Positions 1 through 15,892 of a DNA stretch of 64,000 nt are shown here, one piece after another (position 1 is the stretch's first letter; every line of letters begins with the position of its first letter). The position numbers were made by a program, and so were the translations under genes. Origin of the DNA: Parcubacteria group bacterium (GTDB taxonomy: Bacteria; Patescibacteriota; Minisyncoccia; Phycocordibacterales; 21-14-all-47-15); NCBI GenBank assembly GCA_016181845.1, contig JACOYO010000005.1, positions 2,845-66,844 of the forward strand, given 5' to 3'. The notes under the pieces were generated by a model. The model had not been told where the DNA came from. It was given only the letters and a program-made list of their open reading frames with translations, and did no database searches.

Positions 1-780
1 TATCTGCGTGAAATCTGTTAGAGAGTGTGGCGTATCTACAAGGAGAATATTTTTATTTGAATCACTGAAATATGCCAAGGTTGGAGTATAAGCATTGTTC
101 TGTCCTATAACGAACCGCCCTTGCATTTCATAGTTGGAACCGGCAATGAATGAGAGAATACCCCAACGGGCATTCACCGCGTCGTTGGCGGATGCCGCGC
201 CGGAGAATGTCGCTGGTGTCACATCGTCTCCGGCGGTAATATATATTCCCGTGCCATAGCGAATGGCGTCAACGCCAAGATTTGCACTTTTCACTGTGCC
301 GGTAATATTTGCCGTAGCGCCGAAGTATTGCGGATTTGCTCCTGGAGAACCGGTCAGTGTTCTATACGGAGCTGAGCCGCTTGACGTTGTCACATATCGT
401 ATTGGATAACATTTACCGACACGTCCTACGGCTCCGTAGGTATCGCTTCCTTCAACGTGAAAAGTGTTATAGGCGGTGGTTGCTGTCCCCAATACAATAC
501 CCAAACCCCTAAGGGCGAGAGTGTTTGAAACGCCTGGTGTCGCAAGAAATACCCACACAAAAAAATGGGTATTCGTACCCGGCGTTATAGTAGAACCAAA
601 ATTGTATATCTGGCCCTTTTCTGAAGCAGTAACCTGTTTATCAACGCAGTTTGTCCCCTCCATGGCAAAGTCCGGACCAGCACCAAGACCAGAAGCGCCG
701 CCGCCAAGAGCGACCCAGCCGGTAACGTTTTCGGCTAATGTGATGTCTGTTAAGTCTTCTGTGTATGATGGTGCTGCCAT
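1..780 (-). CDS. Hypothetical G/T/A-rich protein, partial: the ATG is at 778-780 and the ORF runs off the window start (at least 260 codons, no stop)
   Basis: I translated the minus strand 780->1 by hand and found a continuous open frame (MAAPSYTEDLTDITLAENVTGW...RFVIGQNNAYTPTLAYFSD...). It is missing from the ORF track because its stop lies outside the window. The plus-strand ORF 476..805 is its antisense shadow. Confidence 0.5.
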   Translation of the reverse strand, partial: MAAPSYTEDLTDITLAENVTGWVALGGGASGLGAGPDFAMEGTNCVDKQVTASEKGQIYNFGSTITPGTNTHFFVWVFLATPGVSNTLALRGLGIVLGTATTAYNTFHVEGSDTYGAVGRVGKCYPIRYVTTSSGSAPYRTLTGSPGANPQYFGATANITGTVKSANLGVDAIRYGTGIYITAGDDVTPATFSGAASANDAVNARWGILSFIAGSNYEMQGRFVIGQNNAYTPTLAYFSDSNKNILLVDTPHSLTDFTQI

Positions 781-870
781 AATTTCATTTTACCAAAAAA
801 ATTAAACCAATGCCAAATAGCTGGGCGACAGATTAGTTGCGATGGTTTTTTGTCCACATGATATGAATAA

Positions 871-960
871 AATGTCGCAATTAAATGACTTAGATAAACG
901 ATATTTCGCATATCTCTACATAAAATGTCGCAAAGGGGCTTGAAAAGTGTCGCAATTAAT
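871..960. promoter_or_regulatory. Three direct copies of TGTCGCAA(TTAA) in the divergent intergenic region upstream of the Fic-like wHTH gene; candidate operator sites
   Basis: The motif aa(a/g)tgtcgcaa occurs at 871-882, 923-934 and 945-958 between divergent genes, directly upstream of a gene encoding an HTH protein. Confidence 0.25.
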
Positions 961-974
961 TATAGCATATATCT

Positions 975-2021
975 ATGGCTAAAAAACAGGCAAGACAAAC
1001 TAAAATGCTCACTTTTCTTGAAGGTAAGGGAGGAGTATCAATAACCAATATTTTGAACTTTTTGGGCGCCGGTGTAGGTAGAAAAACTGCGCAAAGAGAT
1101 TTGAACGAACTCGAAGAAAAACTTTTAGTTTCAAAAAAAGGCGCGGGAAGAACTACCACTTACTCATTATCGGAAGCCTCTAAAATTTTATGGGGGATTG
1201 ATGTTAACGCCTATTTTGAAACTCCGTACTTGGAAAGAGACATACAAGAAAGATTTAATTTTGAAATATTCAACACGCTCCGCGGTGATATTTTTACCGA
1301 AATAGAAAAAAAGAAGCTGGAAGATCTGCAAGGCGAGTTTATTAAAAATTTTTCAACATACGAAAGTCAAACGCTTATCAACAAAGAGTTTGAAAGAATA
1401 ATGATCGAATTTTCCTGGAAATCCTCGGCGATAGAGGGAAACACCTACACACTCTTGGCCACCGAAGCGTTAATCAAAAATAATGTCGCCGCAGAAGGCA
1501 AGACCAAAGAGGAAACCCAAATGATCCTTAATCATAAGGACGCTTTTAATGAGATCGTCCAAAATAAAGAAAGATTCAAAAAGCTGGACTTCCCTGATAT
1601 TGAGTATATCCATTCCGTGTTGACCAAAAAACTTGGCGTCACAAAAAATATCAGAAACGCGGCAGTCGGGATTACCGGTACTAAATACAAACCACTGGAC
1701 AACAGTCATCAGATCAAAGATGCCGCGCTAGACATGGTGGGTTTAATAAACAAGAAAGAATCTTTCTTTGAGAAGGCATTTTTGGCGCTGGTTCTTATTT
1801 CATACATTCAGATTTTTGAAGATGGCAACAAGAGAACCGCTCGTACTGTCTCCAATGCCATGTTATTGTCGCATAATTCTATTCCACTTTCATACCGGAT
1901 TGTTGATGTTGAAGAATATAAAAAAGCAATGATCTTGTTTTACGAAATAAATAATATCTCGTATTTCAAAAAGATTTTCATCACCCAATTTCAAGACGCG
2001 GTCACTAATTACTTCAAATAA
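975..2021 (+). CDS. Fic/Doc-family protein with an N-terminal winged HTH and a non-canonical active-site motif (QIFEDGNKRTAR instead of HPFx[DE]GNGRxxR)
   Basis: The N-terminus carries a wHTH (..GRKTAQRDLNELEEKLLVSKKGAGRTTTYSL). SSAIEGNTYTL and QIFEDGNKRTAR match the Fic core blocks, but the catalytic His is replaced by Gln and GNG by GNK. Confidence 0.55.
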   Translation: MAKKQARQTKMLTFLEGKGGVSITNILNFLGAGVGRKTAQRDLNELEEKLLVSKKGAGRTTTYSLSEASKILWGIDVNAYFETPYLERDIQERFNFEIFNTLRGDIFTEIEKKKLEDLQGEFIKNFSTYESQTLINKEFERIMIEFSWKSSAIEGNTYTLLATEALIKNNVAAEGKTKEETQMILNHKDAFNEIVQNKERFKKLDFPDIEYIHSVLTKKLGVTKNIRNAAVGITGTKYKPLDNSHQIKDAALDMVGLINKKESFFEKAFLALVLISYIQIFEDGNKRTARTVSNAMLLSHNSIPLSYRIVDVEEYKKAMILFYEINNISYFKKIFITQFQDAVTNYFK

Positions 2022-2073
2022 AGAAGTTCATTTTGACTTTTAACTTTTGATTTTTGCTTTATATATCAGTAGT

Positions 2074-2150
2074 TCTAATGGCGTTGATGGTCTGGTTACT
2101 GGATGTTTGAGTCCAAGAAGAAATAAACTGCTTAATAGGAGTTCCGCCCC
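2074..2150. repeat. 77-bp exact direct repeat, copy 1; identical to 3694-3770
   Basis: It is identical to the 3'-terminal coding sequence of the 3679..5892 gene. Read on the minus strand it encodes [29 protein letters not shown] as a fossil gene end downstream of the FG-GAP gene. Confidence 0.85.
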
Positions 2151-2168
2151 TACTTTTTTTACTTCTAC

Positions 2169-3659
2169 TTAGCGGCTATCATGTCCGGTATTAACAAAGG
2201 CAACACACTGGCCTTGGTTGCGGAAGCCGAAGTTCATCCAACCTAGATTCTTGCATTGGTCTGTGCCGGTTGGGTTTGGATCAGGATCGCCGTCGGGCGT
2301 AGGGTCACAAACATTGCCGATACCATCATTGTCATTGTCCTCTTGGCCCGGATTCGCTATACCTTGGCAATTATCTGCGAGATTATCTACGCCGTCATTA
2401 TCAGTGTCACCGTTGGGTGTAAAGTCACAAAGGTTGCCTTGACCATCACCGTCTGTATCGGCCTGGTCGGAGTTGACGTCCGCTGGACAGTTGTCTGCAC
2501 TGTCAATTATTCCATCGCCATCGGTGTCAGCAAGATATAAATACACAAACTCGGCGCTTTCAGATCCGACTAAGAAATTAATACCTGAAATGAAGACAGA
2601 ACCGCCACCTGCTAGATTGAGGAATGTCTGGAGTAGAGCGCCGTTGATGGCTTCATAGAGATAGACACTTCCGTCGTACGCATTTCCTATTACCAGCTTA
2701 TCCCCCGATATGGATACAGACCAGCCAAAATAGTCCAGATATACCGGCGTAGGGTTATTAAATGTCTGAAGTAAGGCACCCGTCGCGGCATCATAGAGAT
2801 AGGCAGAGCCGGCATTCTCAGCTCCGGTGTCGTCTCCACGTACGCCAATTAAAACATTGTCACCAGATACTGATACAGACCAGCCGAAAGAGTCACCAGA
2901 TTCTGGCGTAGGATGAATGAAGGTCTGGAGTAGAGTGCCGGTTGTAGCGTTATATAGATATGCAGAACCGGCGTTGTTGCCCCCGGTGTCGTTATAAGGC
3001 GCTCCAATCAATATATTGTCGCCAGATATAGCTACAGAGATACCAAAGTTTTTATAGGGTGTCGATGTAGGGTTATTGAAAGTGTAAAGTAATGATCCAG
3101 TCACTGCGTCAAAAAGGTAGGCGGAGCCAGCGTTGATGGCTCCAGTATCGTCCGCATATGCGCTAATCAACACTTTGTCGCCAGATATAGCTACAGAGTA
3201 GCCGAAGCCGTCATCGAATGCAGGTGCAGGGTTATTGAAGGTTTGGAGTAATGCGCCGGTCGTGGCGTTGTAAAGATAAGCAGAGCCGGCATTCTCAGCT
3301 CCGGTGTCGTCACTCCATGCCCCAATCAACACATTGTCACCTGATATAGCTACAGAGTAACCGAAAGAATCATCTATCGCTGGTGTGGGGTTGTTGAATG
3401 TCTGGATCAATGCGCCGGTCGTGGAGTCAAAGAGGTAGGCAGAGCCAGCATCGGTGGCGCCAGTATCGTCGTAAGGAGCACCGACAATAAACTTATTACC
3501 ATCAATGGCCACAGACCTGCCAAAGCGGTCACCTGCCGCTAGTGTAGGATTGTTTATTGTGACCGGCGCTCCATATGTCATCGCCGATGCTCCAATAGGC
3601 GCGATAACAAGAGCAAGCAATGAAAGCAGAGTGAGTGACTTGCGGATTGATGTATTCAT
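2169..3659 (-). CDS. Secreted FG-GAP-like beta-propeller repeat protein with C-terminal thrombospondin type-3-like (Asp-rich calcium-binding) repeats
   Basis: A signal peptide ([26 protein letters not shown]) starts at the ATG at 3657-3659. About 7 repeats of [32 protein letters not shown] follow, then C-terminal [33 protein letters not shown] motifs. Confidence 0.6.
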
Positions 3660-3678
3660 AATTATTAATGTCTGAATA

Positions 3679-5892
3679 TTATATGTCGGTGGATCTAATG
3701 GCGTTGATGGTCTGGTTACTGGATGTTTGAGTCCAAGAAGAAATAAACTGCTTAATAGGAGTTCCGCCCCCATCTCTTACAATAACAACTAAGTTTCTTG
3801 AACCGGATTGCACCGAAGTAAATCTGTCTGTTCCATTCTGCCCACCAGGTCCACTAGTATCTGTACTACTATATAGAGCATCTACATAAGCAATCCAGAC
3901 ATTGTTGCCTGCATTTGCATTCACCGAAAGAAAATCTTCATTACCATCTGTAGTGTCAATAACAAATGTATCAGTTGCCCATGAGGTATAATGGAGTCTT
4001 CTCTCAAAGCCATTATTATCTGTTACTCTGATGTATCCAATTGAAGGAGTGTCGGAAGGAATAGTTGTTGAAACCGCTACTGAGGTAATATTATCTGTTG
4101 TTAAAGCACTGGCGGCTTTAATAGCAAGTTGTGTTTTGGTTATCGCAGGATCTCCGTTTGTATCTGTTGTACTTCCGTCCCAAGGGGCGACCAACACTCT
4201 GTCTTCTCCATTAGCCAATCCTGCAACAATGTTAGTGACATTGTTAGGAGGAGAAATAACCGTATTTGTAAGGTCTGTCACTTTGTCCGAAGAAGATAAA
4301 TCCGCAGTTTGTAGGGCCAATCCATACGAACCGATCAAAGCAGAACCGGTTGAAGCTCCAACAAATGGCTTAGAAATACTACGTTCAGTTACCGTCACAT
4401 TTACTAATGCTGTTGCGCCTGAATTAGCTCCTGTAATTGTGTCGTTATCTACCGGCGCATTTCCTGTAAGAAGCTGTATCCACATCTTTGTGGAGCTACC
4501 TGTTCTGTCATTGATTGCAAGCATCTGTCCTGTACCACCAGACCACGAGACTGCTTCAACGGCATCGAAGTCTGTTGCGGATTGAGTATCAACGTTAATT
4601 TCGTGGGTAATACCCCTAAACAACTCTCCATTTAGCCCATAGACTTGCTCGGTAGAGCCGTCTGCTGTTTGGTATTTACCATATTCATAAAACTGGTTGA
4701 TAGTCTTGGCTCCTCTATCCCAAACCGCATAGTAGTTTTCATTTGTAGTGTTGTTATCAACATCAATGCTCTTATATCCAATATTAAGGTCGTATACCGC
4801 CTCACCGCCAGCAGTTGCTACTTGCAAGTTTCTGTTAAGGGTTAAAGCGTTTGTTGCTATTGAAACAATCTTATACTCACTGTTCTCTCCAGCCCACATG
4901 ATAAAATCTCCATCTGCAAATAATGCGCCATTAGATACATTTAGAATAGCTTGGCCTGTACTATTTACGCCAACGACTGTTGCAGTAGAGTCCGTTCTAT
5001 CAATAAAAACATCTTGCCACCCACTCACCGTGGTTTCACTTGTTGCGTTGTTTAAGTCTGATGAATCAGATAAGGCGAGGACGTTGTTACCCCTTGCAGT
5101 TGCATTAATTGAGAACTCGCCGTAGGTATACCCAAATCTCCTATTGGTTCCGAGTAGTTTTCTAAGGTCAACATCTGTTCCGCTAGTACGAACTTTTTGC
5201 ATCCATCTGTGAGATATACCCGCTGAAACAGACCTATTAACTCCAAGACCTACTTTGTAAACATCGGAAACTGCAAAAGTATTAGCAGTTCCTCCAAACA
5301 AACCAGCGGAACAAGTAATTGTGCCTGTTGTATTAGATGTAATTATTCCATGACTTCCGTCTGTCACGTTATAGAGTGTGAACCCAATGAGGTCATCTGT
5401 AGTAAGACTTCTGTTTGATAAAGCCGTTGATAACGCTGAGTCTGTGACTACAGTAGCAGATGCGGCAGAGGTGACACTTCCCCCCAAGCTATAGTTCCAC
5501 CAGTCATCGCTTACAACAGAACCATTTTGGTGAAGCTGGATAAGAACTCCTTTGTTGCCGAAGTTTACAATACCATCCCAAATATCAGAACCCGAAGTTC
5601 CTTGAATAACAGAACCATCATAGAGATGTTCTGACGATGTTTGGTCAATCGTATACCCGTTAATAAGGGTGATGATGTTGTCGGTTGACCTGCGAGAAGG
5701 GTCAATGTTGGTTACGTCCAATTGGTCGGAACTTGACGGTACTGCCACTGCATCATCTGCCAATCCTTGCAACCATCTGTGAAATTCAATTACTGTCGCA
5801 TACGAAGGATTCACTCCGGTATGGACGTCGCCAGTATATGCGATTACTTTTGTCGCTCTCGTTATTGTCCAGTCTGTTGCTACTATTGCCAT
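3679..5892 (-). CDS. Large (737 aa) T/S/N/G-rich hypothetical protein, possibly an adhesin or phage-receptor-binding-like structural protein
   Basis: Long ORF with tail-fibre/adhesin-like composition and no recognisable enzymatic motif. Its last 29 codons are duplicated at 2074-2150. Confidence 0.5.
3694..3770. repeat. 77-bp exact direct repeat, copy 2; the 3' end of the 3679..5892 CDS
   Basis: Identical to 2074-2150. Confidence 0.85.
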
Positions 5893-6291: not shown

Positions 6292-7125
6292 TTATGAATA
6301 AGTGTGGCCAGCATAACCTGTCCAAGTATTATTAAAACCGGCATCACCGTCGGCCCATGTGATAACAACGCCGGAAGTACTGTCAACTTTTTTTATACGC
6401 CATAATGTGGCTCCCTCTGCTGTTCCGACTGTCGCTTCTCCCACATAATCTATGTCACCAACCGTTGCCACGCGGAGGGCATATTTAACACCGCCAAACG
6501 AAATTGTTTGGAGAGTTGTCTCTGTGGAAGCTGATGAGGGCAGCGCCGAACTCAAGACATCGACCTGCACGTGTCGGTCGACGTCTACCAGACCGCTTTT
6601 GGCCACATCTCCCGAATCACTGAAACTGCTGGATCCACCAGGCTGGGAAGTGACCTTGACTTGCAAAGATCCGGTATCAAACGTCAAATCTGAAGTTTTA
6701 AGGAGTGAAGAAACAGTTGCTTCGGTGGCGAGTGAAGAGACCGTTTCCTCTGTGGCGGGATTTATTCTCGTGTTGGCTGAATTCTTGACACCGACCACGC
6801 CAGTCGTCGGCGAACTGCCCATGATGAATGCCTCGGCTTTTTTGGGTGAAAGTTGGGAAGCGATGATACCGGCCCCAACAACACCAGCAACTTTCAAAAA
6901 GTTGCGTTTACTCTTGTCACTAACTTTGGACTGTTCCGAATCTGTTGATTGATGGATGGCGTCTACGACGTTTTCTGGCACAGGCGCAAAATTAGGCCGA
7001 ACAATTGGCCTTTGTCGTCTTAATAGAAAAGAATCTGTATTTGGTAAAAACACAGAAAAACTAGGCCTAACGATTGGCTTTTGTATTAACAGAAAAGAAT
7101 CTGTATTTGGTAAAAACGTAGACAT
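6292..7125 (-). CDS. Hypothetical exported protein with a possible Tat-like signal (SKRNFLKVAGVVGAGIIASQL..AEA); start codon uncertain
   Basis: ORF with an S/T-rich body. The N-terminal ~50 codons are encoded by a 2x ~66-bp tandem repeat, so the true start is probably downstream of the ORF-track start. Confidence 0.4.
   Translation of the reverse strand: MSTFLPNTDSFLLIQKPIVRPSFSVFLPNTDSFLLRRQRPIVRPNFAPVPENVVDAIHQSTDSEQSKVSDKSKRNFLKVAGVVGAGIIASQLSPKKAEAFIMGSSPTTGVVGVKNSANTRINPATEETVSSLATEATVSSLLKTSDLTFDTGSLQVKVTSQPGGSSSFSDSGDVAKSGLVDVDRHVQVDVLSSALPSSASTETTLQTISFGGVKYALRVATVGDIDYVGEATVGTAEGATLWRIKKVDSTSGVVITWADGDAGFNNTWTGYAGHTYS
6992..7123. repeat. Tandem direct repeat, two units of ~66 bp (6992-7060 and 7061-7123), ~85% identical
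   Basis: ttaggccgaacaattggcctttgtcgtcttaatagaaaagaatctgtatttggtaaaaac... is repeated head-to-tail; seen directly in the sequence. Confidence 0.6.
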
Positions 7126-7308
7126 AATCCGTCAATTTAAATTATATCAGATTTTACACATCGTGTTGTTGACAACTTATACTACGTTAGAAGTAGCTAC
7201 GCCGCGGTCCTCCGAACTCGCGACTTCTAACTGAGCATATTGTGGATTATTGATTTTATATATGTGATATAATTTAGGAACAGGTGTGGGGGTAGAGAAA
7301 AAATTTTC

Positions 7309-8484
7309 ATGAAGAATTACATATCCTATTTTTCATTTTTCTGTTTTGTATTTTTCGGTCTTTTTTCAATTTCTGTCGCGTTTGCCAATAGTTATCAAAA
7401 AATCGCTCCCGGCGACACAGTCACCTTGGGCGAATTCGTTTTTGATGACGATTTTGTCGCGACTACGACAAATTGCACTGTTGGAATAACCAATCCTCTT
7501 AATGCTGAGATAGTTGCATCAACCACATTGATGAACGCTAATACTGATGGCTGGCATTACTATAACTATACGACGGCGGCGGACGCCCCTTCCGGTATCT
7601 GGCCATCAATTATGATTTGCGGAACGGTAGCAAGGGGAGATTTGGTTATAGTAGACAAAAGTTTTATCGTTGATTGGTCAGTCGTTTCAACCAGCACAAT
7701 TAAAGAGGTGGTTGATGAAAGTTTGACCATAGCGACATCTTCCCTGGCGACAGTTATTAATACTCATACCGATACTAAGGCATCCGATATTGTGAGCGCT
7801 GTCAATCTCGTCACCGAGTCAGCTTCATCAAGTTTGTTTGCCACGCTTCCTTCCGCGATCTGGTCATTTAGCAGTCGGACACTCACTTCGTTTGGTACTC
7901 TAGTTGCCGACACGGCTTCGGCGGTGTGGACATCGGTGACATCGGTGACCCGCACCCTGACCGGCGCCGGTCTTGATTCTGGTTCTTTGGCTACCCTCTC
8001 TGATGTACAAACAGCAACGAGTTCTCTCGCTTCAGCAATCACGGCTGGAACGGTGGCGGTGAATACTAATACGAACGCAGAACTTCTTGCCGCCTCAACA
8101 TCCCTTGCCAATTTCATTAATAACAACAGCAACGCGACGATTCTTGCGGCTTCTACGTCACTGGCTTCATATCTAAGCGCTCACACGGATGCGGCGTCAT
8201 CATCAATCGCCTCATTTGTGAACGCTAATACCAACAGCACGGTATTGGCGGCATCAACATCGCTTGCGGCATTCATTAATGCAAATACGAATACACAAAC
8301 CGCCGCGGTAACGTCAGCAGTGAATGCAAACACCGATGCGCGGATCGCAACAGCATCAAGTTCGCTTGCGGCCACGCTTCCTTCCGCGATCTGGTCATTT
8401 AGCAGTCGGACACTCACTTCGTTTGGTACTCTAGTTGCCGACACGGCTTCGGCGGTGTGGACATCGGTGTGTGGACATCGGTGA
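7309..8484 (+). CDS. N-terminal part (signal peptide plus AASTSLAxFINANTN repeats) of a surface protein gene interrupted by a 14-bp tandem duplication; a frameshifted pseudogene or a phase-variable gene
   Basis: Signal peptide MKNYISYFSFFCFVFFGLFSISVAFA. The ORF ends AVWTSVCGHR* exactly where tgtggacatcggtg is duplicated (8456-8469 and 8470-8483). Removing one copy fuses it in frame to 8457..9968. Confidence 0.55.
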   Translation: MKNYISYFSFFCFVFFGLFSISVAFANSYQKIAPGDTVTLGEFVFDDDFVATTTNCTVGITNPLNAEIVASTTLMNANTDGWHYYNYTTAADAPSGIWPSIMICGTVARGDLVIVDKSFIVDWSVVSTSTIKEVVDESLTIATSSLATVINTHTDTKASDIVSAVNLVTESASSSLFATLPSAIWSFSSRTLTSFGTLVADTASAVWTSVTSVTRTLTGAGLDSGSLATLSDVQTATSSLASAITAGTVAVNTNTNAELLAASTSLANFINNNSNATILAASTSLASYLSAHTDAASSSIASFVNANTNSTVLAASTSLAAFINANTNTQTAAVTSAVNANTDARIATASSSLAATLPSAIWSFSSRTLTSFGTLVADTASAVWTSVCGHR

Positions 8485-9968
8485 CCCGCACCCTGACCGG
8501 CGCCGGTCTTGATTCTGGTTCTTTGGCTACACAATCTTATATTGACACTGCCACTTCAACTCTTTCTGCCAAAATCCAAAGCGGCTCTACGGTAACACTA
8601 TCTGATTTTGGGGCGACCACACCTAACACCGCGTACAAAGCAAAATTGCAGGTCCTAAACCAAGCGACCGTTCCAACGGATGCTGATTCTCTGCCAACGG
8701 TGGTTATTACTGATTCCGCCGGAACGGTCCAAGTCAATGGTAGCGTGATGACAAAGGACTCAAACGGCACCTACAGCTTTAGTTATAGTCTTGGCGGCAA
8801 CCCTGTCGGCGGTGTTTGGGAGACAGTAGTTTCCGTCGTCATTAATGGGCAAACGGTTAGAGTAAATGACTATTGGGAAGTTGCGTCAGCTCCGGCACAA
8901 GTGATTGTAAATTCTATTACCGATCATACTATTCCGAGCATCACCGCGAATGTGACCATAACTAATGAAGGAAGTTCCGCTTTTGAGTACCACTATGAAT
9001 GGTGCGTAGTAAAAGAACAAAATAATCCTTGCGGAGATGGTGATGATATTGATTACGCTTCAGCCGCCAAATTTATTCAGCCGGGTGAGGACTTTATCAC
9101 TGATTTGTCTCTTACTCTTAATCAAGAAGGAATTTTCTACTTCAAAGTGGCGGTTACGTGGGGGACGAAAAAATCATTTGCTTCCAGTCAGTTTGACGCG
9201 AGAGGATTTACCGTCTCTGGCGATACATTTGTCCGATTGGAAACGAATGAAGCAACATCTTCACCGTTTGTAACCGATGAAGGAAGTACCATAACGCAAG
9301 GTATTCCTGACGGGGCAACAAATGAAGCATCAAATTTCCACATTTCCAGATTGTCAAAAACGGATGTACTTGCGTCATTTGCCGCCCCGTCAGGAAAAAC
9401 GGCTCTTGGAAGTTACATCTTCGGGTTAAGAGCCAGCACGGTGGCAAGTGGCACGACGATTACCTTATTCAACAAACCGATTACTGTCACGTTTGAATAT
9501 GACGAGAGTTTGCTCGGCGGTTTAGATGAAAGCGCTTTACAAATTTATCATAATCTTGAAAACGGTAGTGGCTGGATTGCTTTGGATAATCAAAGTATTA
9601 ATACCACCAGCAACATCATAACTGGACAAACAATGAGATTTAGTTTGTTTGGTGTTTTTGGATCCGAGGTGGCTCAATCACCATCACCATCTCCATCACC
9701 TGCGCCTTCTAGCGGTGGCGGTGGTGGGGGCGGTGGAGGTGGAAGCGGTGCGGCCGCACCTTCCCAGCCGGCGGCTGTAATTACTTCAAAAGCCGAAAAC
9801 AGCGCGGACTTCAACGGGGACAATAAAGTGAATTCCGTTGACTTCTCAATCTTGCTATTCTTCTGGAAGACATCGCCGCCATTTGCAAATCCGGGAGTTG
9901 ACATAAACAAGGATGGAAAAGTAGATTCCGTTGACTTCTCAATCTTGCTCTATCACTGGAACAAATAA
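8457..9968 (+). CDS. C-terminal part of the same surface protein, ending in a Pro/Ser/Gly linker and a canonical type-I dockerin pair
   Basis: The C-terminus reads ..SPSPSPSPAPSSGGGGGGGGGGSG..DFNGDNKVNSVDFSILLFFW...DINKDGKVDSVDFSILLYHWNK. That is two 12-residue Ca-binding loops (D-x-N-x-D-x-K-V-N/D-S-x-D), each followed by an (F/L)SILL helix, which is the dockerin signature. Confidence 0.6.
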   Translation: MDIGVWTSVTRTLTGAGLDSGSLATQSYIDTATSTLSAKIQSGSTVTLSDFGATTPNTAYKAKLQVLNQATVPTDADSLPTVVITDSAGTVQVNGSVMTKDSNGTYSFSYSLGGNPVGGVWETVVSVVINGQTVRVNDYWEVASAPAQVIVNSITDHTIPSITANVTITNEGSSAFEYHYEWCVVKEQNNPCGDGDDIDYASAAKFIQPGEDFITDLSLTLNQEGIFYFKVAVTWGTKKSFASSQFDARGFTVSGDTFVRLETNEATSSPFVTDEGSTITQGIPDGATNEASNFHISRLSKTDVLASFAAPSGKTALGSYIFGLRASTVASGTTITLFNKPITVTFEYDESLLGGLDESALQIYHNLENGSGWIALDNQSINTTSNIITGQTMRFSLFGVFGSEVAQSPSPSPSPAPSSGGGGGGGGGGSGAAAPSQPAAVITSKAENSADFNGDNKVNSVDFSILLFFWKTSPPFANPGVDINKDGKVDSVDFSILLYHWNK

Positions 9969-9970
9969 AT

Positions 9971-10900
9971 ATGCATACATTCTCTAACAAAAAAATACAC
10001 ATCTTCATTCTGTTGTTTAGCGCAATGTTTTTGCCGTTTTCGGTTTCCGCCTCAACCGCGTATATAGACACCGGTCATACAGATTTTTTCGTTGGGGATA
10101 CTATATTGTTTAGTGTTCGTGTTGACTCTGAAAATAAAGATATAAATGCGGTTGATGGGGAGGTTTTGTTGGATCATGCGGCAAGGTCGGTTTCTTTAAT
10201 TGATATCAATACGGCGAGTTCCGAATTTTCTCTTTGGCCATTAAAACCTTTGCCATCGGAGAGAAATATGAGCATTTCTTTTGTCGGCGGGTCTCCCGGT
10301 GGTTTTAACTCCAAAGACGCGGTTATTTTCAACATTGTCTTGAAATTGGAAAAAGAAGGCCCAATAACTCTGACACCTAGTGATTTTTCTGTGTATCTAC
10401 ATGACGGCAAAGGCACCAAAGATGATGTACATGCTAAACAATTAGCCATAAATGTCTTGCCTAAAAAACCAGATTCGCAGCCAGTTGATGATTGGAATAA
10501 TGTAATTTCAAATGATAAGACCCCGCCCGAGTTTATTGAAGCAATCATAGATAGAGACCCGTATATTTTTGATAACCAATATTTTGTGAGTTTCTTTGCT
10601 GTTGATAAGGATGCTGGGGTCGCTTATTATGAAATTAAAGAGAACGATCTTGATTTCGTTCACGCCGAGAGTCCTCACCTTCTCCAAGACCAATCACTTA
10701 AAAGCGTTGTCCAAATAAAAGCGGTTGATAAAGCAGGAAATGAAATCTTTGTGACTCCAAAATTGGCCCCGGTACCGATAACAGGAATTCCTTACAAAAC
10801 ATATCTGGTCTGGGTTCTTGTTATCCTGGTAATTCTAGCGTTTATTTTCTGGCTTTTGCGGTTCTGGACGACTACATTAAAAAAGAATGTTCAAAAATAA
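9971..10900 (+). CDS. Membrane-anchored protein with an N-terminal cohesin-like beta-sandwich domain; signal peptide and C-terminal TM helix
   Basis: Signal peptide MHTFSNKKIHIFILLFSAMFLPFSVSA. Residues ~28-165 follow a cohesin-like pattern of alternating hydrophobics (ILFSVRV..INAVDGEVLLD..SISFVGG..G.FN...AVIFNIVLKL..G). C-terminal TM YLVWVLVILVILAFIFWLL. It sits directly downstream of the dockerin gene. Confidence 0.5.
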   Translation: MHTFSNKKIHIFILLFSAMFLPFSVSASTAYIDTGHTDFFVGDTILFSVRVDSENKDINAVDGEVLLDHAARSVSLIDINTASSEFSLWPLKPLPSERNMSISFVGGSPGGFNSKDAVIFNIVLKLEKEGPITLTPSDFSVYLHDGKGTKDDVHAKQLAINVLPKKPDSQPVDDWNNVISNDKTPPEFIEAIIDRDPYIFDNQYFVSFFAVDKDAGVAYYEIKENDLDFVHAESPHLLQDQSLKSVVQIKAVDKAGNEIFVTPKLAPVPITGIPYKTYLVWVLVILVILAFIFWLLRFWTTTLKKNVQK

Positions 10901-12617
10901 AAAAATACAATTTTTGAAGTTTGCGCTGTTTCTCGGTCTTTTCGTCTTTTCGTTTTTTGGCGCAAGGACAGTGAACGCCGCGACTATTTATTTTAGTCCG
11001 TCTTCCGGTAATTTTTCTGTTGGGAATATTTTGACCATGAGTGTTTTGGTTAATACCCAAAGCAAGGCAATAAACAACTCCAATGCAATTATAAATTTTC
11101 CAGCCGGCCTTTTGGAGGTCGTTTCGATTAGCAAATCCGGCTCCATCTTTTCGTTGTGGGTTGAAGAGCCGTCTTTTTCTAATAGCGCGGGGACTATCTC
11201 TTTTGATGGCGGACTGCCAACACCAGGTTTTAACGGCACAGCGGGTAAAATTGTAAATATCGTTTTTAGGATTCGCAACGCCGGCACTGCTTCATTGGTA
11301 TTTTCTTCCGCGGCCGTCCGAGCAAACGACGGCTACGGCACGGATATTTTGCAGACCAAAGCCAATGCTCAATTTAATTTAATTTCAGAAGAAAGACCAA
11401 TAGCGCCTCCGCCGGTTACCCTCGGGACTCCGCAGGCGCCAAGCATTTCTTCGCCAACTCACTCCGATTCTAATAAATGGTATTCAAATAATAGCCCCAA
11501 ATTTATGTGGGATGTTCCTTCTGGTATTACCGGTGTAAGATTGCTCGTTGGTCGTTTGCCTACAGCCACTCCAACCATACTTTACACAGAGCCAATTTCA
11601 GAAAGACAATTAGAAGATTTTGCTGATGGTGTATGGTATTTCCACGCTCAATTTAAGAATGAGGCGGGCTGGGGCGGCATTGCACACTTCCGTTTCCAGA
11701 TTGATACTGAAAAGCCTAGCCGCTTTGAGTTAACGGAAATTCCGCGAAAAGACATTACCGAACCAAAAACTAAATTTATTTTTGACGCAAAAGACGAAAC
11801 TTCGGGCATTGACCATTACAAAGTTCAAATAGATGCAGGAAGTTCGCAGGTCTGGCAAGATGACGGAAGCCACAAATATGAGACACCTGTTTTAGAACCG
11901 GGCAAACACACATTAATCGCAAAAGCAGTGGATAAAGCAGGCAACTCATTAGCCAATTCAGTAGAATTTACTATTGAAGCCCTGAAACCGCCGACTATTA
12001 CCGAATATCCAAAAGAATTACAAAGCGGTGAGATACTCAAAGTTGAAGGAAATACCTATTTGAATTCTAAAGTTGTCTTGTGGCTTCAAAGAGAAAAAGA
12101 AGACGCCCAAAGTTATAGTATAGAAAGCGACAAAAACGGAAACTTTACTTTTATCGCTGATGAAAAGTCAAAAGATGGTATTTACAAATTGTGGGCAGAA
12201 GCAATTGATGATAGAGGCGCAAGAAGTGAACCGTCAGACAAATTAACTATTATTGTCCAGCGATTGGCAATCTTGGAAATAGCAACTCGAGCAACAATAT
12301 TCCTGATCATTATAATCCCACTTATTGCTCTACTTATCATTTTACTCATGTTGGTCTGGTACCTCTGGCATAAATTTATAACCATGAGGAACCGGCTTCA
12401 AAAAGAAGTCCGTGAGGCCGAGCAAGCATTGCATAAAGCATTTGATCTACTAAAGGAAGATATTCGAGAGCATATCAAAATGCTTGAGAAAGCCCAAACA
12501 AAACGGCGCCTTACCGAAGAAGAGGAAAAAATTATAAAGCAACTCAAAAAAGATTTAGATGACGCTGAAAAGTTTGTGCGAAAAGAAATTGAGGACATTG
12601 AAAAAGAAGTAAAATAG
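10887..12617 (+). CDS. Membrane-anchored protein with an N-terminal cohesin-like domain, Ig-like middle region, C-terminal TM helix and a charged coiled-coil tail
   Basis: The signal peptide is followed by a cohesin-like segment: ATIYFSPSSGNFSVGNILTMSVLVNT..AINNSNAIINFPAGLLEVVSISKSGSIFSLW...GTISFDGGLP..GFNGTAGKIVNIVFRIRNAG.ASLVF. It shares the AVDKAGN motif with the upstream paralog. TM IFLIIIIPLIALLIILLMLVWYLW, then a KE-rich coiled coil. Confidence 0.5.
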   Translation: MFKNKKIQFLKFALFLGLFVFSFFGARTVNAATIYFSPSSGNFSVGNILTMSVLVNTQSKAINNSNAIINFPAGLLEVVSISKSGSIFSLWVEEPSFSNSAGTISFDGGLPTPGFNGTAGKIVNIVFRIRNAGTASLVFSSAAVRANDGYGTDILQTKANAQFNLISEERPIAPPPVTLGTPQAPSISSPTHSDSNKWYSNNSPKFMWDVPSGITGVRLLVGRLPTATPTILYTEPISERQLEDFADGVWYFHAQFKNEAGWGGIAHFRFQIDTEKPSRFELTEIPRKDITEPKTKFIFDAKDETSGIDHYKVQIDAGSSQVWQDDGSHKYETPVLEPGKHTLIAKAVDKAGNSLANSVEFTIEALKPPTITEYPKELQSGEILKVEGNTYLNSKVVLWLQREKEDAQSYSIESDKNGNFTFIADEKSKDGIYKLWAEAIDDRGARSEPSDKLTIIVQRLAILEIATRATIFLIIIIPLIALLIILLMLVWYLWHKFITMRNRLQKEVREAEQALHKAFDLLKEDIREHIKMLEKAQTKRRLTEEEEKIIKQLKKDLDDAEKFVRKEIEDIEKEVK

Positions 12618-12733
12618 TTAGAAAAAACATTGAAATATGGATATTAAAGAACAAGCAAGATGATGATCAGCCGCCATGAAAAATCTCCGCCAGTCCAGCG
12701 TTATTGAGTCGTCTGTGTCTTTTTCTACAAAAT

Positions 12734-12788
12734 TGGAGCCGCCTCCCGGGCTTGAACCGGGGACCTACGGTTTACAAAACCGTTGCTC
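12734..12788 (-). pseudogene. Partial direct duplicate (3' 55 nt: D-stem 3' strand through CCA) of the adjacent tRNA-Thr; a possible att-site scar
   Basis: 55 nt are identical to the 3' part of the tRNA at 12933-13008. There is no 5' acceptor strand. An inverted D-arm-like fragment (ccaactgagctagctcagttgttagagcaac) lies between the two copies. Confidence 0.55.
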
Positions 12789-13549: not shown

Positions 13550-14140
13550 TCAACGTGTTCCAAACCGCTCAAAACGAGAGACCTCTATTTTTTCACCGAA
13601 TTTTTGGACTGCTTGTTCAATGAGTTTTTCAACGGTTATTGAATCATCTTTTACAAATGGTTGTTTCAAAAGAATGCGCTCGCCAAAGTATGCGGCAATT
13701 TTCCCCTCAAGCGCTTTTTCTTTTACCGCGTCGGGCTTGTCCATTGCTTCCACTTCTTTCGCGAAAACTTCTTTTGCTTTTTCGCGCTCCGATTCCGGCA
13801 CGTCTTCCGATTTCAAAAACGAAGGATTGAGCGCCGCCACGTGCATCGCGATATCGTACGCCAGAGAAACAAAATCTTCATTTTTGGCGACAAAGTCGGT
13901 CTCGCAAGAAAGAAGCACCATGCTCCCAACCGTGCGGTCAGGATGAATATACGCATGTATCGCTCCGGCGCCAAGCGTACGGTCCGCTTTTTTTGAAGCA
14001 ATCTCACCGCTTTTTTTCTGCAAAATAACAAGCGCTTTTGCTTCATCTCCGCCCGCTTCTTCAAGCGCTTTTTTGCACTGCATGACCGATATGCCGGTTT
14101 TGTCCCGCAATTGTTTTATTTGTTCTGTAGTAATCACCAT
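13550..14140 (-). CDS. tsf: Translation elongation factor Ts
   Basis: N-terminal UBA-like ITTEQIKQLRDKTGISVMQCKKALEEAGGD and the conserved core LLSCETDFVAKNEDF; a short-form EF-Ts. Confidence 0.85.
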   Translation of the reverse strand: MVITTEQIKQLRDKTGISVMQCKKALEEAGGDEAKALVILQKKSGEIASKKADRTLGAGAIHAYIHPDRTVGSMVLLSCETDFVAKNEDFVSLAYDIAMHVAALNPSFLKSEDVPESEREKAKEVFAKEVEAMDKPDAVKEKALEGKIAAYFGERILLKQPFVKDDSITVEKLIEQAVQKFGEKIEVSRFERFGTR

Positions 14141-14950: not shown

Positions 14951-15892
14951 TCAACCTTGCGCGAATCGGCTGATTATCGGCTCTATATCTCCGGCAAAAA
15001 TACGCTCGATGCCGTGCCACGACTCTTTGATACGATGGTCGGTTACGCGGTCTTGCAATATGTTGTATGTGCGAATCTTTTCAGAGCGGTCTCCGGTGCC
15101 AATCTGACTTTTACGCTCTGCCGCGTGTTCTTTGTCGGCTTTTTCGCGCTCCATTTCTTCCAATTTTGCCGCAATAATTGAAAGCGCTCTTTCGCGGTTT
15201 TTCTGCTGGCTTCTCTCACTCGTGCATCGCACGACAAGCCCCGACGGCTTGTGCAATAGACGCACCGCCGTTTCCACCTTGTTCACATTCTGCCCGCCAG
15301 CACCGCCCGATCGCGAAAAGGTAATTTCCAAATCAGCCGGACTTATTTCTACGTGCGATGTCTTGCGTACCGGCAAGACCGCCACCGATGCTGTGGATGT
15401 GTGCACGCGTCCGGATTTTTCCGTTGCGGGAATTCTCTGGATGCGGTGTACGCCGGTTTCATATCGTAATTTTTTGTACACTTCTTGACCTTTGATTTCA
15501 AAAGATGCTTCTTTGTATCCGTCCATCGCCGAGAGAGATTCATCAAGTCTATGAAACGACCAGCCATTTTTTTCCGCATATTTTTCATACATCTCCGAGA
15601 GATTGCGCGCGAAAATCGCCGCCTCTTCTCCGCCGGCGCCAGCTCGTACTTCAAGGATGATTTCATTTGGGAATTCCTCTTCTTCTTTATCCTTTGCCAA
15701 AATTTCATCCATCTGCTTAATGAGGGCGTCTTGCTGTTCTTCAATTTCTTTCAATTCTTCTTGCGCCAATTCTTTAAGCATTTCATCCGCTTCGGCGGTT
15801 TGGAGAGCGTCTGCTTTGGCACGTTCAAGCCGCTCGTGTTCCTGCGCGAGAAATTGCGTTTTTGGATTTTCTTTGTAGATGTTGATGTCCAT
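14951..15892 (-). CDS. prfA: Peptide chain release factor 1
   Basis: A GGQ motif ([19 protein letters not shown]) and the RF1-type PAT tripeptide ([14 protein letters not shown]). Confidence 0.9.

Follow-up and report, generated by a model that had tools for sequence, protein, structure and literature searches.

A large share of bacterial diversity belongs to the Patescibacteria (CPR), which live mostly attached to other cells; to our knowledge the machinery of this attachment is largely unknown beyond a few Saccharibacteria. The locus described here raises the question of how such a cell might hold a protein on its surface, as a gene ending in a dockerin is directly followed by two genes for cohesin-like membrane proteins. 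The initial annotation of this DNA had read the arrangement as a docking system in which the two membrane anchors display the dockerin protein. Re-inspection of the sequence, together with HMMs and structure models, found the features described for all three proteins, as well as the neighbouring tRNA, in their places.

Organisation of the locus

The window, that is the whole stretch of 64,000 nucleotides that was analysed, contains one dockerin in total. It belongs to a cassette of three genes which lie beside a tRNA gene:

7309 to 9968, plus strand: cargo gene, made up of open reading frames A (7309 to 8484) and B (8457 to 9968); secreted beta-sandwich protein with a C-terminal dockerin
9971 to 10900, plus strand: small anchor C, 309 aa
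10887 to 12617, plus strand: large anchor D, 576 aa
12934 to 13009, minus strand: tRNA-Thr

The genes are tightly packed, with a gap of 2 nt between B and C and an overlap of 14 nt between C and D. The source is a MAG of the Parcubacteria group, in agreement with the reduced-genome setting assumed earlier. Of the “surface-protein island” proposed for the locus, the adjoining tRNA stood, while the island itself holds only loosely: neighbouring genes vary among all relatives examined. A prophage or mobile island, suggested by a partial tRNA copy, was rejected, since PHROGs are silent on the cassette (the single match among cassette and neighbours is a Fic/Doc-like protein nearby) and the flanks vary among relatives. 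A promoter scan stayed at about the shuffled level (14; shuffled mean 11.9, sd 3.7) and a terminator scan gave 15 against a shuffled mean of 7.0 (sd 2.9); no signal was drawn from either. In the deposited NCBI record, B is HYT28_02380 and C is HYT28_02385 (100% identity), both labelled “hypothetical”.

A secreted cargo protein encoded by an interrupted gene

The stretch from 8457 to 9968 had been taken as a stand-alone gene. This did not hold, as its GTG start at 8457 is a frameshift artefact and A and B form one gene with the following features:

7309 to 7386, plus strand: signal peptide MKNYISYFSFFCFVFFGLFSISVAFA, then NS; seen in the sequence and conserved in the homologue consensus, with a predicted cleavage site
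7408 to 7602, plus strand: first MG2-like (macroglobulin/Ig-like) domain, from a weak Pfam MG2 match (E 0.051)
7840 to 8004, plus strand: direct repeat copy 1, about 166 nt, encoding ATLPSAIWSFSSRTLTSFGTLVADTASAVWTSV(TSV)TRTLTGAGLDSGSLAT
8371 to 8540, plus strand: direct repeat copy 2, which differs from copy 1 solely by 5 nt in length at a short tandem unit
8456 to 8483, plus strand: 14-nt tandem duplication TGTGGACATCGGTG in two copies, which shifts the frame and leads to a stop at 8482 to 8484
8586 to 9203, plus strand: two conserved beta-sandwich domains, B residues 44-142 and 147-249 (AlphaFold2 pLDDT 83-97)
9204 to 9668, plus strand: extra beta domain, B residues ~250-404 (AlphaFold2 strands at 292-402, pLDDT 74-92)
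9669 to 9794, plus strand: flexible linker rich in Pro/Ser/Gly, from the sequence and a pLDDT below 50
9795 to 9965, plus strand: type-I-like dockerin (Pfam PF00404)

B as called lacks a signal peptide. Deleting one 14-nt unit in silico yields an 881-aa open reading frame that begins with a signal peptide and is collinear with the orthologues. One orthologue, that of L026, aligns collinearly with both reading frames (A over residues 13-247, B over 4-254 and 405-503), those of L021 and L009 give the same alignment across A and B, and the consensus of 38 homologues runs from the signal peptide through the N-terminus of A into B. The deposited model of the cargo gene is probably wrong. A programmed -1 frameshift was considered and rejected as unlikely, since inspection of 8456-8484 reveals no slippery heptamer.

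Because the duplication interrupts the cargo gene, the system is at this point either inactivated in this organism or mis-assembled. That the cassette is real but defunct here, with the duplication a true mutation and the gene a fresh pseudogene or a variable surface gene in its “off” state, is a serious though rather unlikely alternative; A would then be secreted without a dockerin and B would be a non-functional cytoplasmic fragment. The frameshift and the early stop are present in the sequence, the deposited annotation likewise separates B as a protein of 503 aa, and the junction lies in a recently duplicated, slippage-prone repeat, a region in which the orthologues L036 and L021 also show repeat expansion. 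Against this, copies 1 and 2 of the repeat agree at 100% over 99 and 67 nt, and identical repeat copies are where short-read assemblers typically make junction errors; in addition, A and B contain no further stops and the genes for C and D are intact. An exact-pattern scan of metagenome contigs for a second assembly of the junction returned 0 matches, and the one other contig with an identical C gene (1.8 kb, Logan assembly of SRR12113431) ends short of it.

The cargo is built from MG/FN3-like sandwiches only, with no enzyme fold found by Pfam, Foldseek or precomputed annotation and no catalytic family by Pfam, NCBIfam or Foldseek, which bears out the earlier statement that a glycoside hydrolase is absent. 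Its homologues bear PF01835 in precomputed annotation, and Foldseek matches the two conserved sandwiches to MG domains of TEP1, C5 and alpha-2-macroglobulin and also to RbmA. The second conserved sandwich adjoins the dockerin in most orthologues, including giant ones, and in L001, L002 and L005 the stretch directly preceding the dockerin aligns with B residues 145-248. The extra beta domain is missing in most homologues, which span just ~50% of B. Between species the length of the cargo ranges from ~270 to >5000 aa, while the dockerin is constant.

The dockerin

The “textbook dockerin” described at the end of B was confirmed by Pfam Dockerin_1 (PF00404) with 36.8 bits (E 4.7e-9) at a gathering score of 22.9. 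It comprises two segments of ~22 residues, each an EF-hand-like Ca loop followed by a helix. Preceded by SPSPSPSPAPSSGGGGGGGGGGSG, the loops read D451-FNGDNKVNSV-D462 (9807-9842) and D482-INKDGKVDSV-D493 (9900-9935), with D or N at positions 1, 3, 5, 9 and 12 (D/N/D/N/D in loop 1, D/N/D/D/D in loop 2) and FSILL after each; in the AlphaFold2 model, residues 460-468 and 491-499 are helical (pLDDT 86-93). The duplication is also visible in the DNA as an internal repeat (9807-9873 and 9900-9966). At the recognition positions (SV...FSILL) the two halves are near-identical, as in type I dockerins with a dual binding mode. Sequence matches in the PDB are the cellulosomal dockerins 4fl4, 2yik and 2mte, and the C-termini of orthologous cargo proteins score 34.8-42 bits with the Pfam dockerin model.

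Two paralogous membrane anchors with cohesin modules

Both anchors start with a hydrophobic signal peptide, which carries an AxA-type site; a cohesin-like module of ~140 aa forms their N-terminal part, and a single TM helix lies towards the C-terminus. The parts of D are as follows:

10887 to 10979, plus strand: signal peptide
10980 to 11396, plus strand: cohesin
11424 to 11711, plus strand: FN3-like domain
11724 to 11981, plus strand: Big_13 Ig-like domain (Pfam E 4.7e-13)
11997 to 12236, plus strand: third domain, low confidence
12297 to 12353, plus strand: TM helix
12354 to 12614, plus strand: charged (K/E-rich) cytoplasmic helix of 87 aa

The cohesin claimed for residues ~30-165 of D stood by structure and not by the Pfam Cohesin HMM, which gives no hit. 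Searched alone against the PDB by sequence, D reaches at best E ~0.8, to 2vn5_A and 1g1k_A, the only cohesins that this search finds, and the profile of its family matches the Ig-like (PKD/Big) part and none of the solved cohesins. As these sequence searches are weak, a comparison of folds is needed. Residues 32-170, modelled by AlphaFold2 with a pLDDT of 94-98, fit the nine-stranded flattened beta-sandwich (jelly-roll) fold of solved cohesins, on which they can be superposed: Foldseek against the PDB matches type I cohesins with TM scores of 0.70-0.77, rmsd 2.5-2.8 A, E 1e-9 to 1e-10 and probability 1.00. These include 5nrm_A (TM 0.77), 1g1k_A (TM 0.76, rmsd 2.5 A, 24% identity), 6kge_A (TM 0.76), 2xdh (TM 0.75) and 2vn5/2vn6, with 2w1n, a cohesin followed by FN3, as the top hit to D. 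Pfam Cohesin does pass its threshold in many homologues, and within the family of D it matches 16 of 35 members (E up to 0.01, best 1e-8), homologues carry the name “cohesin domain-containing protein”, and the motif SKSGSIFSLWVEEPSFSN, which the analysis assigns to strands 5-6, is highly conserved. The TM helix and a charged tail of ~86 aa recur in all 84 D-type proteins. Matches of the tail to TMEM154, ATP synthase subunit b or similar proteins were dismissed, being below threshold and reflecting a TM helix next to a charged helix rather than homology.

The small anchor C is divided as follows:

9971 to 10051, plus strand: signal peptide
10052 to 10468, plus strand: cohesin module
~10508 to 10756, plus strand: Ig-like domain
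10802 to 10858, plus strand: TM helix, then a basic tail of 13 aa

For C, the evidence from the family upholds the claimed cohesin and the Pfam evidence falls short: the match to Pfam Cohesin spans model positions 12-130 of 139 at 14.8 bits (E 0.034), below the gathering score of 24.1. A sequence search of C against the PDB gave no match, and an OmpL47-type barrel match is weak. BLASTP (E 6e-18) and hhalign (probability 99.7%) identify C and D as paralogues, a cohesin HMM built from the family matches C with E 4e-16, and the counterpart of C in L004 reaches 25.3 bits with Pfam Cohesin, above the gathering score. By its paralogy to D, C probably adopts the cohesin fold. Of 74 C-type proteins, 67 have a TM helix and a short basic tail, and the family is annotated throughout as “hypothetical”, without Pfam domains.

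Conservation of the cassette

In the window, a scan places the dockerin (DOC) at 9804-9962 and the cohesins (COH) at 10046-10468 and 10974-11396, so that a dockerin-ended gene is followed on the same strand by a small cohesin-TM gene and a large cohesin-Ig-TM-charged-tail gene. Among 80 loci taken from species-representative genomes of Patescibacteria, 65 show the same order of DOC, small COH and large COH on one strand. The other 15 are all cut by contig ends, with no more than ~2.5 kb of upstream sequence, which leaves 65 of 65 informative loci with the full order. Without exception, the dockerin forms the very end of the protein encoded immediately upstream, and Pfam confirms it independently in L001, L002 and L005. 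At least 534 species-representative Patescibacteria genomes encode a relative of D.

In a mirror-tree comparison, in which shared phylogeny and unequal rates are confounding factors, dockerin distances correlate with those of the D cohesin at r 0.74 and with those of the C cohesin at r 0.58 (partial r 0.59 and 0.22). SEML1_0315, the essential dockerin protein of the Saccharibacterium Southlakia epibionticum, was rejected as a member of the same cassette, its neighbours being an alpha/beta hydrolase and a tRNA rather than cohesins. No published description of the operon, its architecture or its conservation was found; single proteins are automatically annotated as cohesin or dockerin.

A model for the cassette

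Taken together, the cassette is probably a three-gene operon for a non-cellulosomal, membrane-anchored cohesin-dockerin surface tether. The cargo would be exported by Sec as a non-enzymatic protein of MG/Ig-like sandwiches and Ala/Ser/Thr-rich repeats, with the Pro/Ser/Gly linker and the dockerin at its end. The paralogues C and D would sit in the membrane as type I proteins, N-terminus outside; once the signal peptide is cleaved, each would present one cohesin on an Ig-like stalk (~110 aa in C, ~300 aa in D) and be anchored by its single C-terminal TM helix. The dockerin would bind a cohesin non-covalently, probably in a Ca2+-dependent manner, and thereby keep the cargo on the surface of a Patescibacterium that has a wall and is devoid of an outer membrane. 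Indirect evidence for such binding, expected on the 8-3-6-5 sheet of a cohesin, comes from the strict synteny and from the high conservation of SKSGSIFSLWVEEPSFSN. Of the two anchors, D is the likelier principal receptor: it is conserved more strongly, it follows the dockerin more closely in co-variation, and its stalk has the length needed to reach the surface. The conserved cytoplasmic helix of D, ~86 aa long, probably serves to oligomerise the anchor or to connect it with a partner in the cytoplasm. The cargo may be an adhesin or fibre for contact with a host or substrate, a role which fits a length that varies between species next to a dockerin that does not. The tether model does not account for the role of the second, shorter anchor C.

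A bolder form of this model, which we consider improbable, makes DOC-COH-COH the core attachment organelle at the cell surface of Parcubacteria and related CPR. A rapidly evolving adhesin or fibre of 270 to >5000 aa would plug, through its invariant dockerin, into a membrane socket of two tiers where both cohesins engage the symmetric dockerin, and the coiled coil of D would report occupancy or load to the inside. If true, C near the membrane and D distal to it would be used in sequence or together, and this would be the first cohesin-dockerin system to act as a transmembrane-coupled device for host attachment instead of an enzyme scaffold.

Slightly less probable still is a role of C and D as helpers in export or assembly that bind the dockerin transiently, with C near the membrane and D farther out relaying the cargo through the wall to an S-layer-like or fibrillar structure. 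The fixed heights of the two paralogous cohesins, ~110 and ~300 aa above the membrane in nearly every locus, and the symmetry of the dockerin halves would suit such a relay, as would the occurrence of the cassette once per locus in very many species, which resembles a housekeeping component of the envelope. However, the data do not separate a relay from static display, cohesin-dockerin interactions are typically very tight and long-lived, and no cohesin is known to us to serve as a relay chaperone.

The least probable reading, in which neighbouring modules do not interact, the cohesins binding a host surface, a glycan or the like and the dockerin-like EF-hands stabilising the cargo with Ca2+ or binding a partner encoded elsewhere, could draw on the many dockerin- or cohesin-like modules of non-cellulolytic organisms that have no known partner, on SEML1_0315 and on the sub-threshold Pfam Cohesin results for C and D, but 65 of 65 loci in synteny at a module identity of 31-53% across lineages are hard to explain without a functional link, the dockerin invariably ends the gene just upstream, and some relatives have extra proteins with cohesin and dockerin in a single chain, as in adaptor scaffoldins.

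Comparison with known cohesin-dockerin systems

The proposed tether is closest in principle to the single-cohesin anchoring scaffoldins OlpA, OlpC and SdbA of Clostridium thermocellum and ScaE of Ruminococcus flavefaciens, in which one cohesin on a surface anchor takes up a dockerin partner; the OlpA/OlpC cohesins also match D in structure (3ul4_A TM 0.75; 4dh2_C TM 0.72). In those systems SLH domains or sortase attach the anchor to the wall, whereas C-terminal TM helices and, in D, a cytoplasmic coiled coil are used here. Their ligands are enzymes or enzyme-loaded scaffoldins; the ligand in the cassette is one non-enzymatic beta-sandwich protein from the adjoining upstream gene, and CBMs and glycoside hydrolases are absent. 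The hallmarks of a cellulosome are missing: each protein has one cohesin and no CBM in place of a multi-cohesin scaffoldin with a CBM, and MG2-/Ig-like cargo stands in place of dockerin-bearing CAZymes.

The best single-domain matches to the D cohesin come from the type I pair of Clostridium (Ruminiclostridium) cellulolyticum (2vn5/2vn6, 1g1k; 24-26% identity, rmsd 2.5-2.7 A), whose dockerin likewise has two near-identical halves. By contrast, the proteins of the window have diverged below Pfam thresholds, S-V at loop positions 10-11 are the cassette family's own recognition residues, and a multi-cohesin scaffoldin does not form the context. Use of cohesin and dockerin beyond cellulose degradation is known from the cohesin-FN3 of Clostridium perfringens GH84C (2w1n), which has the same order of domains as D, and from the cohesin of Archaeoglobus fulgidus (2xdh). 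The modules of C. perfringens link secreted glycoside hydrolase toxins, no membrane anchor cassette is known for the cohesin of A. fulgidus, and in neither case is there a conserved operon of a cargo and two TM anchors. The “cohesin domain-containing” and “dockerin type I domain-containing” labels of Patescibacteria MAGs (NCBI/PGAP) refer to the same families and are automatic labels of single proteins.

Significance

The family of C would gain an annotation. The cassette would move the cohesin-dockerin pair into membrane-anchored, non-enzymatic display and would supply many co-evolving pairs for the study of specificity and for engineering. For bacteria that mostly live attached to other cells, a three-gene tether in hundreds of species offers a testable candidate which would use a well-understood, strong plug and in which the partners can be predicted from gene order.

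Organization of the locus

Positions 7309-12617 of the window are occupied by four open reading frames (A to D), all on one strand, with a gap of 2 nt between B and C and an overlap of 14 nt between C and D. The best-supported reading of this cassette, based on fold, family membership and very strong synteny, is a non-cellulosomal cohesin-dockerin surface tether, with A and B making up the gene of a dockerin-bearing cargo and C and D encoding a small and a large membrane anchor. Proteins 100% identical to B and C are deposited from a Parcubacteria group bacterium MAG as HYT28_02380 and HYT28_02385, both labelled hypothetical, so the window derives from a genome of the candidate phyla radiation (Patescibacteria). 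A gene identical to C is also present in the Logan assembly of SRR12113431.

Features of the cassette and its surroundings
975-2021, plus strand: protein with a DeoR-like HTH and a Fic/DOC domain (Pfam Fic E 6.5e-11; PHROG 11900 E 3e-27)
2169-3773, minus strand: FG-GAP protein, 534 aa, with six FG-GAP repeats (Pfam E 4.9e-67) and thrombospondin type-3 Ca-binding repeats
3679-5892, minus strand: Ser/Thr/Asn-rich protein, 737 aa; the called ORF overlaps the FG-GAP gene by 95 nt
6292-7125, minus strand: 277-aa protein with a tandemly duplicated N-terminus (repeats 7017-7056 and 7083-7122)
7309..8484, plus strand: ORF A, 391 aa
8457..9968, plus strand: ORF B, 503 aa
9971..10900, plus strand: ORF C, 309 aa
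10887..12617, plus strand: ORF D, 576 aa
12934-13009, minus strand: tRNA-Thr(TGT), beyond D
13550-14140, minus strand: ORF of 196 aa, translation read by eye
14951-15892, minus strand: ORF of 313 aa, translation read by eye

Upstream of the cassette, the FG-GAP protein is predicted to be a further surface protein, and the Ser/Thr/Asn-rich protein has no family match in Pfam or PHROG. In the 277-aa protein, a 66-nt period encodes FLPNTDSFLL...PIVRP twice, followed by a weak TAT-signal-like motif and a hydrophobic segment. The two ORFs past the tRNA read like EF-Ts and a class-1 peptide chain release factor (GGQ motif); if that reading is right, such neighbours would place the cassette in the core chromosome and not in an obvious mobile island. 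The 3' part of the tRNA-Thr gene recurs as a perfect 56-nt copy at 12733-12788, separated from the complete gene by 145 nt, and occurs nowhere else in the window. The copy resembles an att-type remnant left by integration or excision, or else a truncated tRNA pseudogene.

The cargo protein

The initial annotation treated B as a gene of its own ending in a dockerin. The dockerin has stood up to scrutiny, but the stand-alone gene has not, since A and B form one gene. A has a signal peptide, which is absent from B as called, and a direct repeat of 166 nt is common to the two (7840-8004 and 8371-8540); its copies differ only at a short tandem unit, which is ACATCGGTG twice in the first copy and TGTGGACATCGGTG twice, at 8456-8483, in the second. 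Both the stop at 8482-8484 and the shift of frame arise from the 14-nt duplication at 8456-8483, and the frame of B carries on the repeat-encoded peptide (TRTLTGAGLDSGSLAT). Removal of one 14-mer in silico yields a single 881-aa ORF spanning 7309-9968. In three related loci the orthologue is one protein that aligns with A and B in that order: in L026, residues 13-247 of A correspond to 43-262 (74% identity), 4-254 of B to 223-475 (62%) and 405-503 of B to 468-562, and L021 and L009 follow the same pattern. The consensus order of 38 homologues likewise runs from signal peptide to the N-terminus of A to B. The repaired ORF, the collinear orthologues and this consensus show that the real unit is one secreted protein. 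The interruption itself is either a real inactivation of the cargo gene or an assembly error within a perfect repeat; the junction did not turn up in any other assembly. Programmed frameshifting is unlikely, as 8456-8484 contains no slippery site.

From its N-terminus, the cargo consists of the signal peptide, an MG2-like domain, an Ala/Ser/Thr-rich repeat region, two conserved β-sandwiches, an extra β domain, a P/S/G linker and the dockerin. Pfam returns only weak MG2 matches on A and B, and the homologues carry PF01835 and PF00404. In the AlphaFold2 model of B (mean pLDDT 79; conserved domains 83-97), the best Foldseek matches are macroglobulin domains of TEP1, complement C5/C3 and alpha-2-macroglobulins, with further matches to the FN3-tandem biofilm scaffold RbmA and to repeats in large adhesins. 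Neither Pfam nor Foldseek detected a glycoside hydrolase, a CBM or any other catalytic family in the cargo, in agreement with the earlier statement that the locus has no glycoside hydrolase; judging from sequence and model, the cargo is not an enzyme. The extra β domain (9204-9668, B residues ~250-404) separates the linker from the conserved pre-dockerin module. It is missing from most homologues, which cover only ~50% of B; one of 710 aa (P0286), which covers B over its full length at 42% identity, may also carry it.

The C-terminus of B reads ...SPSPSPSPAPSSGGGGGGGGGGSG...AENSA-DFNGDNKVNSVD-FSILLFFW-KTSPPFANPGV-DINKDGKVDSVD-FSILLYHW-NK-stop and scores 36.8 bits against Pfam Dockerin_1 (E 4.7e-9; gathering score 22.9), with sequence matches to the solved cellulosomal dockerins 4fl4, 2yik and 2mte (E 0.005-0.014). 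Positions 1, 3, 5, 9 and 12 are D/N in both 12-residue loops, and the two halves are a repeat at the DNA level too (9807-9873 and 9900-9966). The model places dockerin helices at 460-468 and 491-499 (pLDDT 86-93) behind a disordered linker. The recognition positions of type I dockerins are nearly identical between the two halves; in cellulosomes, near-identical halves accompany a dual binding mode.

The membrane anchors

The two downstream proteins had been proposed to be cohesin-bearing membrane anchors, a view now borne out by fold, by paralogy and by transmembrane helices conserved in relatives. The N-terminal 277 aa of D have at least 196 homologues, mostly from Patescibacteria/Parcubacteria MAGs, several of them titled "cohesin domain-containing protein" and many with a precomputed PF00963 match. 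The search with the cohesin HMM that the initial annotation had suggested gave a divided answer: Pfam Cohesin does not match D itself and reaches only E 0.034 on C (model positions 12-130 of 139), but it matches 16 of 35 aligned members of the D family (best E 1e-8). AlphaFold2 models residues 30-170 of D very confidently (pLDDT 94-98), and likewise 180-365, and by Foldseek against the PDB the N-terminal domain superposes on the type I cohesins 1g1k_A (TM 0.76, rmsd 2.5 Å, 24% identity), 2vn5 and 2vn6 (TM 0.70-0.74, 25-26% identity). The cohesins 6kge, 5nrm, 3ul4 and 4dh2 also match, as does the non-cellulosomal archaeal cohesin 2xdh (TM 0.75), while the top match is 2w1n, a cohesin + FN3 construct of C. 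perfringens GH84C (E 4e-13). Behind its cohesin (residues 32-170), D has an FN3-like domain and then an Ig-like domain of the Big_13 type (Pfam E 4.7e-13). A third domain, which is modelled poorly, leads to a transmembrane helix at about residues 471-489, and beyond this lies an 87-aa helix rich in K and E.

As judged by sequence, C, with its cohesin at residues 28-166, is a paralogue of D. BLASTP aligns the two at 34% identity across 153 N-terminal residues (E 6e-18), with a second match in the Ig-like domain, hhalign of C against the D family gives a probability of 99.7%, and the family cohesin HMM hits C at E 4e-16. At least 265 proteins belong to the C family, and those listed are all without a Pfam annotation. 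All 84 D-type proteins have a charged tail of ~86 aa, preceded by a transmembrane helix that lies ~300 aa beyond the cohesin; in 67 of 74 C-type proteins the helix lies ~110 aa beyond the cohesin, and the tail is basic and ~8 aa long. The positive-inside rule, together with the N-terminal signal peptides, would put both cohesins outside and both tails inside.

Conservation across Patescibacteria

The same arrangement of genes was found in four relatives reached via D homologues: L001 (2177-aa MG2 + dockerin protein, then 303 and 483 aa), L002 (>5045 aa, then 196 and 484 aa), L005 (1989 aa, then 203 and 474 aa) and L004, which has two cassettes (300-3752 and 7171-9245). The upstream proteins of these relatives end in Pfam dockerins (34.8-42 bits). 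With one genome per GTDB species scanned, a relative of D is encoded in at least 534 genomes. The best 80 of these loci, scanned with custom family HMMs, span Portnoy-, Wolfe-, Colwell-, Jorgensen-, Magasanik-, Uhr-, Doudna-, Sung- and Vogelbacteria as well as Paceibacterota, Microgenomatus and unnamed Patescibacteria. The order dockerin, small cohesin, large cohesin on one strand holds in 65 of the 80, and all 15 exceptions lie at contig ends that leave at most about 2.5 kb upstream. In the loci scanned, the protein of the gene directly upstream always ends in the dockerin, whose frame, stop to stop, ranges from 269 to >2200 aa in the fetched DNA, with one called gene (that of L002) exceeding 5045 aa.

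The number of anchors is not fixed at two, as some genomes have two cassettes (L004) or three successive anchor genes (L036). In L036, the three cohesin-anchor genes stand in a row behind one dockerin gene (6328-11701). In three related genomes, the custom HMMs detect a protein of ~250 aa just downstream of the cassette that combines a cohesin with a C-terminal dockerin (L082 12379-13140, L084 12387-13151, L086 3566-4396); that of L082 has a Pfam dockerin of 24.4 bits, above the gathering score, and a cohesin at E 0.0066. These proteins resemble an adaptor scaffoldin, which suggests that the tether can be extended.

A model for surface display

In the proposed mechanism, the cargo would be exported by Sec, its C-terminal dockerin would plug, probably Ca2+-dependently, into a cohesin on an Ig-like stalk held by a membrane anchor, and a variable, adhesin-like β-sandwich protein would be displayed on the cell. 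What the analysis establishes is the identity of the domains, the features of topology and the synteny, from which binding, its Ca dependence, the choice of receptor and the biological role are inferred. D is more likely than C to be the receptor because it is conserved as much as the dockerin (mean pairwise identity 50% among D cohesins and 53% among dockerins, against 31% among C cohesins), because its stalk is long enough to cross the wall, and because dockerin distances follow those of D more closely than those of C (r 0.74 vs 0.58; partial r 0.59 vs 0.22), a correlation that is only a hint as it includes phylogeny. C and the conserved cytoplasmic helix of D could possibly serve as a relay, a two-point socket or a means of oligomerisation.

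Comparison with known systems

Single-cohesin anchoring scaffoldins (OlpA, OlpC, SdbA, ScaE) capture a dockerin in the way proposed for the cassette, but they are anchored by SLH domains or sortase, whereas the cassette uses a transmembrane helix with a cytoplasmic coiled coil. This anchor, the single cohesin per protein, the lack of CBM and CAZyme and a ligand encoded within the same operon set the cassette apart from those scaffoldins, and for these reasons it is not a cellulosome. It groups with the cohesin-dockerin systems found outside cellulosomes, among them the toxin complexes of C. perfringens and the modules of A. fulgidus; a 2009 survey reportedly covered non-cellulosomal modules of both kinds in all three domains of life. 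In the open-access literature, no paper was found that joins cohesin, dockerin and Parcubacteria, nor one on such a cassette in Patescibacteria/CPR, although an earlier description elsewhere is possible. The closest report is of an essential dockerin-domain protein from a Saccharibacterium (PMC10633639), whose gene has no cohesin genes beside it. The interest of the cassette lies in its phylum-wide conservation within a poorly understood, host-dependent bacterial radiation, and in a partner prediction that is directly testable.
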